DNA from: Thermoproteota archaeon
GTDB taxonomy: Archaea; Asgardarchaeota; Njordarchaeia; Njordarchaeales; Panguiarchaeaceae
Reading direction: 5' to 3'
Assembly: GCA_024720975.1 (NCBI GenBank)
Contig: JANJXX010000002.1
Location: 136,046 to 200,045, forward strand
Length of the DNA stretch: 64,000 bases
Shown: positions 6,362 through 48,365 of the stretch, one piece after another
How the letters are laid out: each line of letters starts with the position of its first letter
Position numbering within the stretch: position 1 is the first letter of the stretch
The notes under the pieces: model-generated
Seen by the model: only the letters and a program-made list of their open reading frames with translations
Databases searched by the model: none
What the model was told of the DNA's origin: nothing
Program-made: the position numbers and the translations under genes

Positions 6362-8866
6362 GTGCACTTTCATGCATGTTGCTTCGCCTTTATCGAACTT
6401 CCCTCATACCACTCTAAGGGGTCCTGCTTGGTTTCTAAAAGTTTTGAGCTCATTAAATACCTGTTAGGGGACGACATTATAACTGAAATCGAACACGGCA
6501 CACACAGGAAAAAAATAGCTATGAAGCTCTTAGATAATTTACACCTTCTAAGGCTATTTCCACCTCTTAGGGATCTTCTTCCTGCTCTTGCAGCATCTCT
6601 CTTCGAGCCCCCTACTCATAGATTAACCCTCATAGAAAAATTTATAATAGAAAGAGGGCTACTCTCACGAGTATGGATTAAGGATACAGCCACCGAAGAA
6701 CTCCTTGGAAAGACCATTAAATTAATACAAGATCTTAGTCATGATACCCTGCTGAAGATATTGGCTGTGATCATGAAGAACTACGCTACAACAAGCGAAC
6801 TAGAATCGCGACTCGATCATCTTATTGATATGACTTTTACTCTGTATGCTCGCGCAGGGAAGTTCGATCTAACCGCACCCAAACTTTTTCCATCACCAAA
6901 ATTTTTATCAGAAATTACAAAGTGCAAAGAACTTGAGGCAAATCCTGATGAAATTATTAACGAGGCTATAAGGACTACATGCAGAATCCTGCCCAAGCGT
7001 CTGCTTAGTTATTTGGACTTTGCACTCAGAATCTTAACTGGTATAAGCTTGAGGGAGCTATCTTCAAATACTATATCTAAGTTACTCTTTAGTGAACGAT
7101 TGGAAGCCATAAAGATTGTATGCATCATCGCGATGCTATACGCCGGATCTTTTTCTCCTGATAGATTAAGAGAACAAATCAGGCTAAGCCTGTTAGAGTT
7201 TCTCATTCGGGAATACATTACATCCAACGACAACATGGTTCATGGCTGGCTAATCTCGTTACTGTTAACGGTGAGCGCATCTAGAGAAGAGCTACTTAAC
7301 CTTCTAACAATATATAAGCTCGCTTCAGTCCATGGAGGAAAAGTAATGCTAAGGCTTCTCGAAACATTATTCGAAAACTCTAATGCCTACCTAATTGCTT
7401 GCATGCTAATGCTCTTAACTGCACATCACAACGATGAACTAGAGGCCATAAGCTCACTTGCAATTTCAAGAAACAGTACTAGACTTAGGCTTATTAACAG
7501 CATACTCATTAAATCCGATCTTAAACCTCACGGATTGACTGCACCTATCCCCTGGGAGCTATATGGTTCCATCGATAAACTCCTTAGAAGTTGTAAATCA
7601 GCGATTACATATTACAAAAATTTATACATCCAGCCACCAAGAAACTTATTAAGACTTGACAAATTTCTAGAAAGTGCGAATAACATGATAAACCTCGAGC
7701 TTGAGGAGACAACCAACATAGAGGAACTCAAGCAGAAACTTGAACTTACGCTAGAAACTCTAAGTAGAGGTTATGCTTTCACTAGTGAAATGATAAGAAC
7801 CTTTGGAATGCTGCCAGGATTCTTCCAAACAATTAATGCTGTAAGGAACACCTGTAAAAAGCTTAGCGATAGGTGGGAATACACACTTACAAAGGACTAT
7901 CTAAATTTAGTCACCAAGCATCGAGATTTGTTCACGATATCATCTCTTGATGCTGTTCAAAGGGAACAGGAACCTATAATCTCCTTAATTATTGATGGCC
8001 TCCGCTTCGATGATCTAATTTTGCGGTTACTACCTAAGCTTAAAAAGCGCGGCTTTAGACTCATACAGGGGGGAGCGAAAATCTCTTTGCTACCATCAAT
8101 AACGACGGTATCAAGACGAGCTATAATATCTGGAGAACTTCCCCAGCTGCTAGCCTTCTCTAAAACATCCCTAAAGAGAGAAGACGAAATCCTACTGGGT
8201 AGATTCGGACAAAATATCGAGTCTTACTACGGACCAGTGGCAACTGTTTATAGCAAATTCTCAGAAAGAGAGTATCACTCAAACAAAGTGTTCATAGTAC
8301 TCAGTGAGCTCGAAAAATCTATGCACGGATCATCAGAAAAAATCCTAGCACATTTCGTGGATGAATATCTACATAGTATCGTTGAACTGATAATGTATCT
8401 AGTAACATCGATTACAAGAAAGCATAAAAAGATACGGATTCTTATATGTTCAGATCATGGTCTAAGCGCATTTGTGAAGTTTTATGACTTATCAATTTTC
8501 CTAGAAAAGCTAACAAACAAAAAACTCACTGATCCTTCATTGGAGCCGCTAATCAAGGAACGATTTGCCCTCATTCCATTAAGAAACCCGCAACAGATAT
8601 TAGAAGCCCAGCAAATTTACAGTTCCGAGGAAGAGTTTCGATACTCGTTTTGGTTATTACCTGCAGATAGTCTTGGCTTCAAGGAAATAGAGTTTTATCT
8701 GAAAGGAACGAAGACTCTAGCGAAAACTTGTCCCTCATCAAGAGTTGTAATAATATTTCCGAAGGGCGACAGGAAACTTATAAGTGGTAAGGGCGCCATA
8801 TATCACGGAGGTTTATCACCGGATGAAACATTTAGCGCCTATGCCTTACTCTCTTATGATGCTTAA
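6362..8866 (+). CDS. PglZ-domain (alkaline phosphatase superfamily) protein with long helical N-terminus
   Basis: C-terminal motifs IIDGLRFD, LLPSITTVSRRAI, CSDHG and YHGGLSPDE match the PglZ pattern. True start is likely downstream of 6362. Confidence 0.75.
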   Translation: MHFHACCFAFIELPSYHSKGSCLVSKSFELIKYLLGDDIITEIEHGTHRKKIAMKLLDNLHLLRLFPPLRDLLPALAASLFEPPTHRLTLIEKFIIERGLLSRVWIKDTATEELLGKTIKLIQDLSHDTLLKILAVIMKNYATTSELESRLDHLIDMTFTLYARAGKFDLTAPKLFPSPKFLSEITKCKELEANPDEIINEAIRTTCRILPKRLLSYLDFALRILTGISLRELSSNTISKLLFSERLEAIKIVCIIAMLYAGSFSPDRLREQIRLSLLEFLIREYITSNDNMVHGWLISLLLTVSASREELLNLLTIYKLASVHGGKVMLRLLETLFENSNAYLIACMLMLLTAHHNDELEAISSLAISRNSTRLRLINSILIKSDLKPHGLTAPIPWELYGSIDKLLRSCKSAITYYKNLYIQPPRNLLRLDKFLESANNMINLELEETTNIEELKQKLELTLETLSRGYAFTSEMIRTFGMLPGFFQTINAVRNTCKKLSDRWEYTLTKDYLNLVTKHRDLFTISSLDAVQREQEPIISLIIDGLRFDDLILRLLPKLKKRGFRLIQGGAKISLLPSITTVSRRAIISGELPQLLAFSKTSLKREDEILLGRFGQNIESYYGPVATVYSKFSEREYHSNKVFIVLSELEKSMHGSSEKILAHFVDEYLHSIVELIMYLVTSITRKHKKIRILICSDHGLSAFVKFYDLSIFLEKLTNKKLTDPSLEPLIKERFALIPLRNPQQILEAQQIYSSEEEFRYSFWLLPADSLGFKEIEFYLKGTKTLAKTCPSSRVVIIFPKGDRKLISGKGAIYHGGLSPDETFSAYALLSYDA

Positions 8867-9591: not shown

Positions 9592-10506
9592 TTACAGGCT
9601 AGTCATTAAACTGAGAGAAAGCGCGGCCAAGAGAGGAAAGAGTATGTTATCATTAATTGTTATGCGAGAAGCACCATTTATAAAATCAAGTATCGCCACT
9701 ATTAAAGACGCCGGTATGGCAATCCACCCCACGATGAGATAGCCAGCAAGAGAACCTGTGATGAAGTTCGCTAAGAATCCTTCCAAACTCCTATCGTTTA
9801 GTGCTATTCTTCTGCACTTCTTACCGATTATACATGCAGCCAAGTCAGCTAAAAATGCAATGGCTATTGCTGCAGCAACTATATCATCATGAGGAAAGAA
9901 TAACAACGCAACAAGATAAACTGCCGCTGCTGAATATAAATATGAAGCCAATTGATTAAGTTCTTTCTCCCTTAACAATACACCAAAAATCGCAGGTTTA
10001 TAATTGAGTCTCAAAAACTCAATAAAAGTAAACAGCATCAATAGCGCAAGCGCAACGGCAAACAACAAAAGACACAAAAAGCCCTCATCCCGCTTTGTAA
10101 TGAATATCCCAAATGTTGCATATGTACCATCAATGACAAAATTGTATATTTGACGGTAAAGATGTTTTGGAACAAATAATGCTAGGGCAATTAAATGAAA
10201 AGTCTTACGCTTAACTTCATCAATATATGTTTTATTATTTACTACTTTTATCTCGACGCGTCCTGTAGCAAATGTTATGAAAATAACTATAAGAATCACG
10301 ACTGGCAATATAAAGGCAGCAGCGATAGCTAGAAAATATTCCTCTGCCGGCGTGAATGGATTCATTCGAATAATATAAAGCAACCCCCACATCATGAGAC
10401 CTACCAGAAACGCTTCACTTTGAATGCTAGCATGCTTCTTTAGGGCTATGTAGCTTATAATCGCTGTCATTAGAACTTGAGCCAGTATTAGAAACACTAC
10501 TTGCAC
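9592..10506 (-). CDS. Dolichol/phytol kinase-like membrane protein (CTP-dependent, SEC59 family)
   Basis: Multiple TM segments; RKTFH, ADLAACIIGKK, RSLEG, DNILFP. Confidence 0.8.
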   Translation of the reverse strand: MQVVFLILAQVLMTAIISYIALKKHASIQSEAFLVGLMMWGLLYIIRMNPFTPAEEYFLAIAAAFILPVVILIVIFITFATGRVEIKVVNNKTYIDEVKRKTFHLIALALFVPKHLYRQIYNFVIDGTYATFGIFITKRDEGFLCLLLFAVALALLMLFTFIEFLRLNYKPAIFGVLLREKELNQLASYLYSAAAVYLVALLFFPHDDIVAAAIAIAFLADLAACIIGKKCRRIALNDRSLEGFLANFITGSLAGYLIVGWIAIPASLIVAILDFINGASRITINDNILFPLLAALSLSLMTSL

Positions 10507-10626
10507 CAGGTCAACAGTAGCGGCTAAAACTTATCCAAAGGTTTAAAAGTAAAGTCGGGGATTGCGTGATAAAGTCGAATTAGTAAATCTTAATCGTACA
10601 TAATAAAGGAATATAAAAACCCAATA

Positions 10627-10908
10627 CTATACAATACTTTTTATAGCCTCTACGATTCGCTTTCCCCTGTCTGTTATCCTTATTGTCCATGCATTAACTC
10701 TTGGAGTTATCTTCTTTACAGCAATTCTAACAAGACCAACTTCAGCCAGGAGTAAAACTGCCTTTCTCACTGCTTTATACTTTGAAAAGCCCAAGTGAAT
10801 CAATATGTCAGTGAGCTTCATTTCCCCGTATTTGTCTAGGAGGTATAGCACTAATACTGAAAATGGCGAAGAGAGTGCTTGTAGTATAAGCTCTAGACTC
10901 AAATACAA
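10627..10908 (-). CDS. Small winged-helix DNA-binding protein (ArsR/MarR/HxlR-like)
   Basis: wHTH pattern ending in LAEVGLV...ITDRGKRIVE. Confidence 0.75.
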   Translation of the reverse strand: MYLSLELILQALSSPFSVLVLYLLDKYGEMKLTDILIHLGFSKYKAVRKAVLLLAEVGLVRIAVKKITPRVNAWTIRITDRGKRIVEAIKSIV

Positions 10909-11063
10909 CCCCCAATAATCATAGAGTAAAAATAGTTAGAAAGACTTAAAAACGTAGAATACGAAACATGAGGCACTGCATTGACTCTAATAGATCCCAG
11001 AAAAACACAGAACTAAAGTCTCTTAATGTATACAATAAGACGATTTAATAATAGTCTGATACT

Positions 11064-11920
11064 GTGAATTTCACAAAAGGGTGTTTCAACCTATTACATT
11101 TAGCCAACAAAAATCATCAGTAAGCACCCTGTATAACAGACATCAACTTCACAAGTGCCACTTCCTGTGAACAAAACTTGTTAACTTTGCGAATCTATTG
11201 AACCTAGCTAGCATCGTTTCTCCAGTGGAAATGGGGGGTCTTGAAAAAACAGACTAGAATCAGACTTTCAGAGACAATATAATTGCTAGAGGCATATCTG
11301 AAAGGCTCAACAGTTTCTACAAGAACTCAGTGACCCAAGTGAATCCCTGTAGACCCCTGGTCTTCCTATATAGTTAATATCAACATATTTGTGAATCGTG
11401 CTGTTATACGTGAACTATACGCGAAGCATATCCTAGTTTCACATTCTCTAACTTCCAATAGTGAAGTTAACTATCCACCTAACAGCTTAGATTTTAGTTC
11501 CATGATTGAATGCTTCTTCTCTGTAGAAAGTCGTCTTTGGCGGGGCTTTTTGTTATTGGTGTTCGGATGTTATTGGGTGCTTCAATGGAATTTAAGGGGT
11601 CATCACATTCACTTGCGAAGATAGTTAGGTAAATAAGGATTCCTGTAAATTGCCCATGGTGGGAGAATGTCGTTGTATTTGTCCTCAGCTGGTGCCATAT
11701 GTAAGTCAAGTAGCAAAATTGTCTGATTAACTGCCGAAGTATGGCATTAATTGATTTAGGAGACTTTCACTCGAGGATAAATTACTGACTCCTATTTCCC
11801 TAAAGTATTATCTACACTGCTTGCTCATGGTTTTGATTCTGTGAAAGTTAGATAGCTTAGCATATCTATTCGTGTATTCGTTGCGTATAACGTTCGATAT
11901 ACACTTCACTTTAATTTCAC
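11064..11920. repeat. Dispersed array of GTGAA/TTCAC pentamers (14 copies)
   Basis: Copies start at 11064, 11070, 11148, 11167, 11339, 11391, 11410, 11438, 11461, 11608, 11766, 11841, 11905 and 11916, including the palindrome TGTGAAtTTCACA at 11063-11075. Confidence 0.6.
11221..11601. promoter_or_regulatory. ORB-like boxes (candidate replication origin)
   Basis: TCCAGTGGAAATGGGGGGTC (11221-11240, +), TATATAGGAAGACCAGGGGTC (11352-11372, -) and TTCAATGGAATTTAAGGGGTC (11581-11601, +). They resemble the archaeal ORB pattern TCCAnnGGAAAn(3-4)GGGGT and lie within a ~1 kb ORF-poor gap. Confidence 0.6.
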
Positions 11921-11928
11921 TGCATGAT

Positions 11929-11945
11929 GATTACCATTGGTAATC
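11929..11945. promoter_or_regulatory. Perfect inverted repeat GATTACCA-T-TGGTAATC, operator-like
   Basis: 8-bp arms with a 1-nt spacer, 13 nt upstream of the wHTH gene start at 11959. Confidence 0.4.
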
Positions 11946-11958
11946 TTGGTAGGACTAG

Positions 11959-12441
11959 ATGCCGACATTGAATATTAAAGTGAAAGTAGGAGATACTGAG
12001 GTAGAAGTTAAAGCAGATGGTACTTTGGATAAGGAAACTATTCATGCTATTAGGAGCATCTTAGCCCCTCTCGCGTCTAGAATTCCGTCTGCCGCTGCTG
12101 TTAGGGACAATGCTAGTCTGAATAATAACACTGATGACATTGCTGTAAATAGTCAGGATGCATTTGTGAGGAATGTTAACTTGTATGCCAAATTTAAGGA
12201 ACTAATGCTTAACGTGTTCAAGCTTGGACAGTGGTTTACGTCTATTGATGCTAAAGAAGTGTTCCATGATACTTATGGGATCCTTCTGAAGTCGTCAACT
12301 GTGACGACATATCTCCGTCGTATGGAGGATGAAGGGCTACTGACGTCTAAGAGACAAGGACGCCTATTGCAGTTTAGGATTTCAGCAGTTCCTCTCTATG
12401 CAACTCTTGCAGAATCGGAATTTAATGAACTTAAAGCTTAG
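11959..12441 (+). CDS. Winged-helix DNA-binding protein with N-terminal beta-hairpin domain
   Basis: N-terminal LNIKVKVGDTEVEV, low-complexity linker, C-terminal wHTH WFTSIDAKE...SSTVTTYLRRMEDEGLLTSKRQGR. Confidence 0.75.
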   Translation: MPTLNIKVKVGDTEVEVKADGTLDKETIHAIRSILAPLASRIPSAAAVRDNASLNNNTDDIAVNSQDAFVRNVNLYAKFKELMLNVFKLGQWFTSIDAKEVFHDTYGILLKSSTVTTYLRRMEDEGLLTSKRQGRLLQFRISAVPLYATLAESEFNELKA

Positions 12442-12448
12442 GTCTGGT

Positions 12449-14064
<1,616 letters not shown>

Positions 14065-37446: not shown

Positions 37447-37567
37447 TTTAAAATAAGTTAAGCGATAAAATTACAATACTACTATTATCTAGTCATTTCA
37501 ATGAATGCCTATTTAGGCTTTTTTTGGCTCTTTTAAGTGAAAGACAAACAACTATGGGGGACAATTC

Positions 37568-39016
37568 TTGAGCACAAAATCAATTGAGAGAAAAAGTGTT
37601 CCGCTCTTTATGATATTATTAGTGCTGTCTCTGGCATATTTCGTCTCAACAGCTTTTCTGTTTCATGTAAGTAATGTGAAAGACGCTGAATACTACTCTG
37701 CAGAATGGTTCCTAGAAAACTCTCATGCGATAATACCCACGTTTCCACTCCTTAACATTACTCCACCTAATTACACGCTCCAATTTTCATTCGAGGTTGT
37801 TGGTGACGCCAGAACTTACGGCTGGAGATTTATTATCCTCAGTGAATATGCCACAGGGAAGGGGTGGGTTGTAGGTAATCTTAGCCAGGAGCCTTATCTA
37901 ATGAATACCACGGAGCATTTCTTTCTGGTGAGGTTACTCCCGCTTCCTATAGAAGTGCTTCGAAGCTTTCCTCTAGTAACGCTATGGGATGTTATGCACC
38001 AACGTCCAATTATATCATCATTTTCACCATACATTTCAACAGTTAGCCACTTTGAATGTTACCTAGGGATATTGAAGCCAGATGATATCGTAACCGTGGA
38101 CGTCTCAAGCCCAGAAGAGGGTCTAATAGGCTTCCGGTATTTAGCACACTTCACTCCTACGAACTTTCATGATATGCCTAGTTCTTTTTCCAAAGTTAAT
38201 GAAACAAAGACCGAGGCGCAAAGAAATAGTGCTATTCGTGATTATTTAAAAATTCCCTCAGACTACTTTTCAATGTATCCTAAAGTACTAGAGTTAGTTG
38301 AAAATGTATCACTGCCGCCCGAAAGATCTGTTTATGATCAGCTAACAAGTACTTTAGCTTACATTTTTGCAAACTTTGAGTTAAGGGAGAGTATTAACGT
38401 GGTGCGTGATCCTGTAGCAGATTTTATTGAAAATGGTGGAGGGCCACCCACTGGATTTGTTAATGTCACAGCATTTATACTCAGAGCACTTGGCATACCG
38501 ACTCGTATAGTAATTGGTTTTATTGGTGGGGGCTATTCTAAATCCACAAATACTACGACATACTCACTAGAGAATTTGGCAGCATGGATAGAAATATGGG
38601 ATAAGAACATTGGCTGGATCCCAATTTGGGTTTATCCACTTATGTTCAAGGTGTCTAATATTCTGGCTCCCATAACAGCCCAGGTACAGGCACCCAGAAC
38701 CATAGAGAACTATCCAGCGGCACGTATCAATGAGTCTATAACAATTAATGTAAGTCTGGAGGGGAATTTCAGTACTTTTGAGAATACACAGGCTGAAATA
38801 TATGATCTAAACGCGTCTTTAAGGATCGGTAGCGTAGTCATTCGAAAAATTGGCGAAGGTAAGTATGGGTTCTCGTTTGATTTCAGTTACGATGCAGTTT
38901 ACAGTGGCTCTGGGATGAATGTTGTTTACGGCAGACATGTTATCGTTGTGAGAATGCATTCAGTGTATCTATTCCTAGAACTTGTTTTGCTCAGAATGAC
39001 TACCATCAGCTCGTGA
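37568..39016 (+). CDS. Membrane-anchored transglutaminase-like domain protein, catalytic triad apparently lost
   Basis: N-terminal TM; DPVADF..GGG...ILRALGIPTRIVIGF...AAWIEIW....GWIP. Confidence 0.75.
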   Translation: MSTKSIERKSVPLFMILLVLSLAYFVSTAFLFHVSNVKDAEYYSAEWFLENSHAIIPTFPLLNITPPNYTLQFSFEVVGDARTYGWRFIILSEYATGKGWVVGNLSQEPYLMNTTEHFFLVRLLPLPIEVLRSFPLVTLWDVMHQRPIISSFSPYISTVSHFECYLGILKPDDIVTVDVSSPEEGLIGFRYLAHFTPTNFHDMPSSFSKVNETKTEAQRNSAIRDYLKIPSDYFSMYPKVLELVENVSLPPERSVYDQLTSTLAYIFANFELRESINVVRDPVADFIENGGGPPTGFVNVTAFILRALGIPTRIVIGFIGGGYSKSTNTTTYSLENLAAWIEIWDKNIGWIPIWVYPLMFKVSNILAPITAQVQAPRTIENYPAARINESITINVSLEGNFSTFENTQAEIYDLNASLRIGSVVIRKIGEGKYGFSFDFSYDAVYSGSGMNVVYGRHVIVVRMHSVYLFLELVLLRMTTISS

Positions 39017-45385: not shown

Positions 45386-45479
45386 TGGCGCCGGGGGGCG
45401 GACTCGAACCGCCGACCTCCCGGTGTCTACTCGATTGCATCACTAACAGCCGGACGCTCTACCACTGAGCTACCCCGGC
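45386..45479 (-). tRNA. tRNA-Asn(GTT) with 19-nt intron at 37/38 (45425-45443), CCA encoded
   Basis: GCCGGGG acceptor; TCCGG-CTGTTA[intron]A-CCGGG; BHB central helix CTGT/GTAG. Confidence 0.92.
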
Positions 45480-48271: not shown

Positions 48272-48365
48272 GCCGGGGTTCACGAGTTGGAACGTGGCGT
48301 GCCTGGAGACATGTCGGAAAGCACGTGGCGTTTGCGCCTCGCGGGTTCGAGTCCCGCCCCCGGCA
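48272..48365 (+). tRNA. tRNA-Ser(GGA) with 11-nt intron at 37/38 (48309-48319)
   Basis: GCCGGGG/CCCCGGC; CGTGC-CTGGAG[ACATGTCGGAA]A-GCACG; long variable arm. Confidence 0.88.

Follow-up and report, generated by a model that had tools for sequence, protein, structure and literature searches.

An ORB-type candidate replication origin without an adjacent orc1/cdc6 gene in a Njordarchaeales archaeon, and a winged-helix family linked to Asgard origins

Described archaeal origins and the Njordarchaeales locus

The subject of this work is a gene-free gap of 1050 bp in a stretch of 64,000 nucleotides (the window, G000:C19:136046-200045; positions below are those of the window unless a contig is named) from a hot-spring Asgard archaeon of the order Njordarchaeales, which we interpret as a likely chromosomal replication origin lying beside a gene for a 160-amino-acid (aa) protein with a winged helix-turn-helix (wHTH) domain. 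Among the described archaeal origins, oriC1 of Sulfolobus/Saccharolobus combines Orc1-1 with three origin recognition boxes (ORB1-3), has a core of 130 bp in which ORB3 and ORB2 enclose a duplex-unwinding element (DUE), and carries in addition the ucm motif, which is bound by UBP (PMC12141716). UBP, a saddle-shaped strand-swapped dimer with DNA-binding beta-hairpins, is needed at ucm for origin activity and touches MCM (PMC12141716). The Njordarchaeales gap resembles oriC1 in its classic ORBs, with an inverted pair about 130 bp apart, and in the presence of an additional non-ORB word within the origin; the Sulfolobus word is essential, and the protein that reads it is not an initiator. It differs in that orc1 is not adjacent, in that the spacer is not AT-rich, and in that the additional word forms an array of 14 copies as against the one 11-bp ucm motif; likewise, the protein that may read it is of the wHTH type, with its gene next to the origin, and not a saddle-shaped dimer.

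A second precedent, oriC3 of Sulfolobus, has neither an ORB nor a mini-ORB and depends on WhiP, a Cdt1-related winged-helix initiator (PMC4010727, PMC3607249). The present locus shares with it a winged-helix gene, rather than orc1, beside the origin; however, it has canonical ORBs, Orc1 is encoded in trans, and the neighbouring protein has one wHTH and no Cdt1-family Pfam match. A third precedent is furnished by the haloarchaea, where a divergent oapABC cluster lies beside oriC1 (PMC7002104), OapA being the vesicle GTPase ArvA (PMC10927574). The likeness here is in the retention of conserved non-initiator genes beside the main origin across a large clade, whereas the proteins (a small GTPase, DUF2073, and DUF2072) are unrelated to those at our locus and have a known role in vesicle formation. 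As for the Asgard archaea, we found no paper describing their ORBs or the 160-aa family, and no experimental study of their replication origins in the searchable papers; both ORBs and a winged-helix partner go unmentioned in a 2025 survey of the Asgard replication machinery (PMC12680538).

The ORB cluster, the strand-composition switch, and the initiator genes

The assembly (G000) comprises 1.36 Mb in 29 contigs, is 81% complete, and has 40% G+C; the window lies on contig C19, which is 200 kb long. We consider it likely that the gap is an Orc1/Cdc6-dependent chromosomal origin of the oriC1 type, which is widespread among archaea, and it is probably the sole origin of this chromosome. An earlier note on this DNA had singled out the gap, with the right coordinates, as the largest non-coding one of the window and as a candidate oriC without an adjacent cdc6. 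This assignment is now well supported by the uniqueness of the ORBs, the skew switch, and the conservation of the layout in relatives. The components of the proposed origin are as follows.

10909-11958, unstranded: proposed oriC region, the largest gap of the window, with no ORF shared with the related genome G003 and no Rfam match
11161-11185, plus strand: block TTCCTGTGAACAAAACTTGTTAA, which resembles an ORB dyad without the G-run and has one TGTGAA inside; an island of identity with G003
11220-11240, plus strand: ORB-a, canonical, CTCCAGTGGAAATGGGGGGTC, the best matrix match of the assembly (24.7 bits)
11241-11351, unstranded: spacer of 111 bp between ORB-a and ORB-b, 62% A+T, where unwinding would be expected
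11352-11372, minus strand: ORB-b, degenerate and inverted, GGAAGACCAGGGGTC (plus-strand 11352-11366, extended to 11372), with GGAA-N6-GGGGTC kept
11484-11521, unstranded: strand-composition switch, delimited by the cumulative GC-skew minimum and the amino/keto maximum
11580-11601, plus strand: ORB-c, the third ORB, CTTCAATGGAATTTAAGGGGTC, with the third-best matrix score of the assembly (12.7 bits)

The gap holds no credible open reading frame (ORF) and lies between a 93-aa ORF on the minus strand and the 160-aa ORF on the plus strand. Its rank as the largest rests on crude ORF calling (ORFs of at least 90 aa), and a seemingly larger gap at 37447-38974 was discounted, as a 482-aa ORF fills it. 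No ORF in the gap is conserved with G003, and searches against Rfam at E up to 1 gave nothing in 10000-13000; across the whole window, the matches were confined to tRNAs. A non-coding RNA in the gap was rejected given the lack of an Rfam match and the nature of the conservation with G003, which takes the form of short islands with indels, unlike that of an RNA or an ORF.

The three boxes with a GGAA core ending in GGGGTC, the first two inverted, that the earlier note had read in the gap are indeed present, the G-runs of ORB-a and ORB-b facing each other across the spacer. The pattern GGAA-N2-10-GGGGTC has seven sites on both strands of the assembly, three of which fall within a 382-nt part of the gap (Poisson P ~1.5e-9), and this clustering is far beyond chance. 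With a weight matrix built from 21 ORBs, all from genomes other than G000, ORB-a ranks first among 2.7 million positions (the runner-up scoring 15.0 bits) and ORB-c third. The 21-mer of ORB-a is single-copy in G000, G001, and G003, which belong to one genus, with no occurrence in the reversed control. Its core, TCCAGTGGAAA, is identical to that of the published archaeal consensus CTTCCAGTGGAAACGAAAGGGGT (PMC4153887 Table 2), and its GGGGT tail also agrees; in contrast, ORB-a has one base less in front of the G-run than the consensus, and ORB-b and ORB-c are degenerate.

The same arrangement is retained in relatives belonging to two families of the order. Between our gap and that of G003, whose neighbouring proteins are 53-75% identical, the alignment is confined to short islands, namely the three ORBs, the block at 11161-11185, and a promoter-proximal segment at 11893-11916; ORB-a differs by one mismatch, ORB-c is kept, and ORB-b is partly kept. 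Upstream of the 160-aa gene, G006, G010, and G013, which belong to a second family, have the (+,-,+) layout as well, the offsets in both families being about 130 nt from the first to the second ORB and then 230-270 nt. The inverted ORB at the offset of ORB-b scores 20-21.5 bits in G006 and G010 and 8.9 bits in G013, and a third plus-strand ORB lies at a similar place in all three. The inverted pair is a feature common to G003, G006, G010, and G013, despite the degeneracy of ORB-b in our genome. Four hot-spring metagenome contig sets furnished near-identical strains with five base changes in the gap, none of them inside the three boxes, a number too small to weigh.

Independent of the boxes, the gap is the site of a reversal of strand composition. 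The cumulative G-C count of contig C19 drops steadily to its global minimum of -3152 at C19:147566, which is window position 11521, and then climbs; the maximum of the amino/keto disparity on the same contig is at 11484. A compositional shift near 11500, which had previously been noticed by eye, is thus real, and the contig minimum falls inside a gap that makes up 0.5% of the contig. The plus-strand skew to the left and right of the gap is 0.068 and 0.121 in plus-strand genes, -0.124 and -0.050 in minus-strand genes, and -0.040 and +0.054 in intergenic DNA; at third codon positions it is -0.010 (plus-strand genes) and -0.067 (minus-strand genes) on the left and +0.121 and +0.097, respectively, on the right. 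Gene orientation does not account for the switch, since the flip holds in genes of both strands, in intergenic DNA, and at third codon positions; the flip also precedes the minimum of the gene-orientation curve by about 20 kb. On the four largest other contigs (C11, C23, C25, and C27, up to 410 kb), the skew is essentially monotonic, while C24 and C26 have weak extremes only. The simplest reading of the monotonic contigs is that they belong to long replichores running from one origin. The strand asymmetry of an oriC1-type origin is accordingly found at the gap itself.

The polarity of the skew is not uniform in the phylum, given that its sign is reversed in the closed genome G014. There, the detrended skew extreme is a maximum, 3 kb from the ORB locus; genes diverge from this region, and the coding strand there is C-rich at third positions. 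The genome paper of Ca. Odinarchaeum placed a potential origin by skew alone, at a local skew minimum (PMC9246712). If G014 is Ca. Odinarchaeum, an identity that is not confirmed, its ORB locus would be a better origin candidate than that minimum.

The initiator gene is next to an archaeal origin 'in most cases' (PMC4010727). In our assembly, the nearest orc1/cdc6 is a paralog about 54 kb from the gap on C19; the only other copy is on contig C11. The latter is 42-45% identical to the ORB-adjacent cdc6 of other Asgard families and is the ortholog of that origin-adjacent gene. An origin beside either copy was rejected: the sole gap next to the C11 gene is filled by an archaeal RNase P RNA (137.6 bits) and a tRNA just downstream (L001:939-1360) and has no ORB, and the C19 paralog is tightly packed between its neighbours. 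The separation is general in the order, with the main orc1/cdc6 on a contig other than that of the ORB locus in all 13 matching Njordarchaeales genomes, and no ORB in its fetched flanks in any of these 13. At the orthologous loci of other Asgard families, orc1/cdc6 is adjacent to the ORBs.

The earlier note had further suggested that the two wHTH neighbours of the gap might act as initiators in the manner of WhiP. The absence of an adjacent initiator gene and the constant proximity of the 160-aa gene to ORBs would fit such a role for one of them. However, this proposal is not borne out: two orc1/cdc6 genes are present, the boxes are of the canonical Orc1 type, whereas oriC3 has neither an ORB nor a mini-ORB (PMC4010727), and there is no Cdt1/WhiP-type Pfam match for either neighbour or for any of 25 members of the 160-aa family. 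The marks of the WhiP/Cdt1 type, namely Cdt1 similarity, tandem winged helices, and an ORB-free origin, are all wanting, the model of the 160-aa protein showing a single wHTH. Moreover, in most Asgard lineages the 160-aa gene adjoins cdc6 rather than replacing it. We accordingly regard an initiator function of either protein as extremely improbable.

In a different vein, the boxes might be Orc1-responsive operators of the 160-aa gene (and perhaps of the 93-aa gene), with the true origin elsewhere or unassembled. Consistent with this, other Asgard genomes have solitary strong ORBs, perhaps regulatory, that are accompanied by neither cdc6 nor the family gene nor the word array; the contigs with Methanosarcinales-type homologs have a single ORB about 300 nt upstream of the homolog; and our gap has no AT-rich DUE. 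On the other hand, the six largest contigs have a single skew switch, which lies in the gap and does not depend on gene strand; the ORB cluster found next to cdc6 in other Asgard genomes is orthologous to this locus; and the three ORBs here form an inverted layout rather than a single operator. We hence hold a purely regulatory role of the boxes to be very unlikely.

Several observations nevertheless weigh against the interpretation of the gap as an oriC1-type origin. The score of ORB-b on the full matrix is poor (-6.1, rank 723) because the left half of its dyad is lost. An AT-rich DUE between the ORBs is absent, the spacer having 62.2% A+T against a gap mean of 62.7%, and the AT-richest 40-mers of the gap (80%) start at 10913 and 11014, to the left of ORB-a; an AT-rich DUE between ORBs is, however, usual rather than obligatory (PMC4010727). 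In the closed genome G014, the skew sign is opposite to that of G000 and follows gene orientation. The region is rearranged even within the genus: in G001, the ORB is 4.3 kb from the 160-aa-family gene, with a VapBC pair, glyA, thyX, and a membrane gene in between, and in G002 and G004 no ORB was found beside the family gene. Finally, the assembly is incomplete (81%, 29 contigs), and the missing part could hold a further origin or a cdc6 with flanking ORBs. If the gap is the origin, Orc1/Cdc6 encoded on another contig would bind ORB-a, ORB-b, and ORB-c, the inverted pair of ORB-a and ORB-b would bracket MCM loading and duplex opening, and forks would depart both ways, leaving the composition switch at 11.5 kb.

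The origin-linked winged-helix family and the TTCAC(A) array

Besides the boxes and the switch point, the gap and the DNA to its right have the following features.

11063-11920, unstranded: array of 14 TTCAC/GTGAA words, seven of which extend to TTCACA/TGTGAA, with the palindrome TGTGAAtTTCACA at 11063-11075
11893-11920, plus strand: promoter-proximal block, nearly identical in G003, containing a TATA-like TTTAAT and a pair of TTCAC words spaced 11 nt apart; lying about 45 nt upstream of the ATG, it would be the promoter
11959-12441, plus strand: 160-aa gene of the origin-linked winged-helix family, encoding an N-terminal beta-hairpin and helix, a linker, a PadR/ArsR-like wHTH, and a C-terminal helix

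No Pfam or NCBIfam model matches the 160-aa family above its cut-off. The best Pfam match, Penicillinase_R, reaches 21.1 bits against a cut-off of 22.6 and is weakly matched by 13 of 25 members, so that membership among the PadR/ArsR/BlaI regulators is not attained at the Pfam threshold. The AlphaFold model (overall predicted local distance difference test score, pLDDT, 75.5) has a beta-hairpin and helix at residues 4-40, a disordered linker at 46-70, a winged helix at 75-141 (AF2 pLDDT above 94), and a C-terminal helix. The winged-helix fold with a C-terminal helix is shared with these regulators: VIA matches PadR-like and RosR chains with Z 10.6, 9.9, and 9.6, Foldseek gives E 2.5e-3, residues 72-160 superimpose on PDB 3elk with VIA Z 10.6 and a root-mean-square deviation of 4.2 over 87 aligned residues, and a profile match to YgaV has E 1.2e-5. 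Thus, while residues 72-160 resemble the PadR, ArsR-SmtB, and BlaI-MecI-CopY proteins (PDB 3elk, 6ez1, 3cuo, and 1okr), the family is set apart from them by its specific N-terminal beta-hairpin-helix domain, its disordered linker, and its fixed position at the origin. Within the family, the recognition helix STxSTYL.R and a WF.S motif are nearly invariant. UBP was not among the listed matches of the profile search against PDB sequences or of the fold searches with the 160-aa protein, and homology between the two is unlikely, since the 160-aa model is a wHTH. Fused longer forms of the family were not found, which is weak evidence. One of the 25 members has a weak match to the MCM C-terminal winged helix PF21100 (E 3.7e-4), and the other 24 have none.

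A family profile from 25 homologs (alignment A1) has matches in 250 of the 332 Asgard genomes, covering 61 of the 78 genera, and mostly one per genome; in a search of 1.84 billion representatives, it retrieved about 400 clusters, 294 of them at E up to 1e-10. Beyond Asgard, cluster members occur in Methanosalsum zhilinae (annotated 'CopY family', 333 aa; e.g., WP_013898779.1), Methanohalobium, and ANME-2c. These Methanosarcinales members have the N-terminal domain and the wHTH joined by a Q/P-rich low-complexity linker of 100-200 residues (P0082, P0091, P0102, P0125, P0148). On metagenome contigs with members of this type, 20 of 49 long loci have an ORB scoring above 15 bits some 300 nt upstream of the homolog, and one has cdc6 adjacent. 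Look-alikes labelled Bathyarchaeota or Nitrososphaerota in the ESM Atlas are leads only; some Njordarchaeota metagenome-assembled genomes are mislabelled Nitrososphaerota.

The genomic contexts of the family indicate that it is a phylum-wide, origin-linked gene. In the 16-kb flanks of 20 loci, distant families have one or more ORBs, the family gene, an ORB, and then cdc6. Of 20 further loci, from genomes outside the matrix, 12 have an ORB of at least 20 bits no more than about 1.1 kb from the gene, and 12 have cdc6 in the fetched flank, adjacent to about 4.5 kb away. An independent search with a strict ORB 19-mer gave zero to three matches per genome and none in every reversed control; 120 of its 138 matches are within 6 kb of a family gene. 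Positions of both such an ORB and the family gene are listed for 93 genomes; the distance between the two is at most 1 kb in 66 of these and at most 6 kb in 89. No more than two ORBs score above 15 bits in G014, a closed genome of 1.42 Mb, and they adjoin the family gene and cdc6 (G014:C1:622647-626157). From these contexts, we reconstruct the ancestral Asgard layout as ORBs, the 160-aa-family gene, an ORB, and orc1/cdc6; in Njordarchaeales, orc1/cdc6 moved away, while the 160-aa gene and a dense TTCAC(A) array stayed.

Some strong ORBs stand alone. Those at L304-L311 and L313 (30-37 bits; e.g., G118:C21:168446 and G048:C1:287378) have no cdc6, family gene, or TTCAC array nearby, and the tail GGGGAG(G/T)GGG is common to those of one family. 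Such boxes could be promoters under Orc1 control or else dormant origins.

The gap is also the hot spot of TTCAC(A) in the genome. TTCAC/GTGAA occurs 14 times in the gap where 1.9 are expected, a count reached by 0.015% of the 1050-nt windows of the assembly, and TTCACA/TGTGAA occurs seven times where 0.49 are expected, one pair of these forming the 13-bp palindrome. Roughly half the sites of the array have, by eye, a matching word at the aligned position of G003. Among 35 loci from other genera, GTGAA is first of all 512 pentamers, with its densest window at most 400 nt from the family gene in 17 loci; the overlapping TCACA follows with 15 and ATTCA with nine, and all others have five or fewer. 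Nine solitary ORBs elsewhere have no array. In the closed genome G024, which has no family match, the ORB near cdc6 is likewise without one; it is the only clean case among such genomes, the others having no ORB near cdc6. In G037 and G065, the array accompanies an ORB 5 kb from the family gene, and because it sits with the distant ORB there, it belongs to the origin and not simply to the gene promoter. Upstream of the Methanosarcinales-type homologs, TTCAC often peaks, below the criterion of four standard deviations, and the ranking is swamped by the CAA/CAG words of the linker.

Given the parallel with UBP, we tentatively propose that a dimer of the 160-aa protein reads TTCAC(A), modulating the origin as an accessory factor and also controlling its own promoter. 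It would do so by means of its nearly invariant recognition helix. More guardedly still, the family as a whole may be a previously undescribed accessory factor, kept with ORB-type origins since before the Asgard radiation, that reads TTCAC(A) arrays and works with Orc1, for example, in helicase loading or release or in the timing of firing.

The chief competing view is that the origin is real but the 160-aa protein is an ordinary transcription factor riding alongside it, and that either Orc1, taking the words for degenerate half-ORBs, or another protein reads the array. Its wHTH fold is of the generic PadR/ArsR/BlaI-like kind, and the array of G037 and G065 is with the ORB 5 kb away and not at the gene promoter. 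Against this stand the persistence of the linkage in at least 15 families, in spite of numerous rearrangements and of cdc6 no longer being adjacent, the near-invariance across the phylum of both the recognition helix and the DNA word, and the lack of the array at ORBs that have no family gene nearby. On balance, we find it somewhat unlikely that the protein is a mere bystander.

A centromere-like or nucleoid-organising function, in which the protein would coat the TTCAC(A) array for segregation or folding, is also conceivable. Origin-proximal partition sites are common in bacteria; the array has 14 short words over about 850 bp; and the fold class includes the PadR-like centromere binder AspA (rank 44 in the fold search). 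In contrast, the array is short compared to known spreading sites, and the N-terminal domain is without a known counterpart; we therefore view this alternative as rather improbable.

Three considerations count against the accessory-factor proposal itself. TTCAC is one base off the ORB half-site TTCCAC, and Orc1 could, therefore, read the array. The haloarchaeal oapABC genes, whose synteny with the origin is unrelated to replication, caution against deriving function from origin synteny (PMC7002104, PMC10927574). Lastly, the support for an origin role of the 160-aa protein consists throughout of synteny and co-occurrence.

Neighbouring genes and implications for Asgard replication

On the far side of the gap lies one further small gene.

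10627-10908, minus strand: small wHTH-like gene, with weak HTH matches only, found in Njordarchaeales only

This 93-aa gene adjoins pyrB in G001 and G004 and is on contigs other than that of the ORB locus in a sister family (f3); we regard it as an incidental neighbour with no special tie to the origin. The two genes flanking the gap are hence not equivalent, as the 160-aa gene is origin-linked across the phylum, whereas the 93-aa gene is restricted to the order and is off the ORB contigs in the sister family.

Elsewhere in the window, an 834-aa protein encoded at 6362-8866 on the plus strand has a weak PglZ-domain match (E 3.3e-6), and in G001, G003, and G004 its gene is syntenic with pop5, a 108-aa gene, and a gene for a 304-aa membrane protein (matched only in part in G004). 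ARAGORN reports two odd tRNAs of 94 nt each, a 'tRNA-Stop (tta)' at 45386-45479 on the minus strand and a tRNA with a four-base anticodon at 48272-48365 on the plus strand; Rfam finds a normal tRNA at 45386-45479, and both are probably intron-containing tRNAs misread by the program. In G001, a VapC/PIN and AbrB-type antitoxin pair is directly beside the single ORB (L034:3903-4600).

Asgard archaea are the closest known prokaryotic relatives of eukaryotes, and the present locus provides a precise map of a likely origin from this group, with three ORBs, a switch point, and a word array. The locus shows that the initiator gene can leave an origin while a second small gene stays. In practical terms, the pair of ORB and family gene offers a marker of origins in Asgard genomes, where GC skew can mislead and the sign of the skew alone is unfit for placing them. 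If the proposed reading of the array by the 160-aa family is true, the archaeal lineage closest to eukaryotes would initiate replication through a two-protein origin code.

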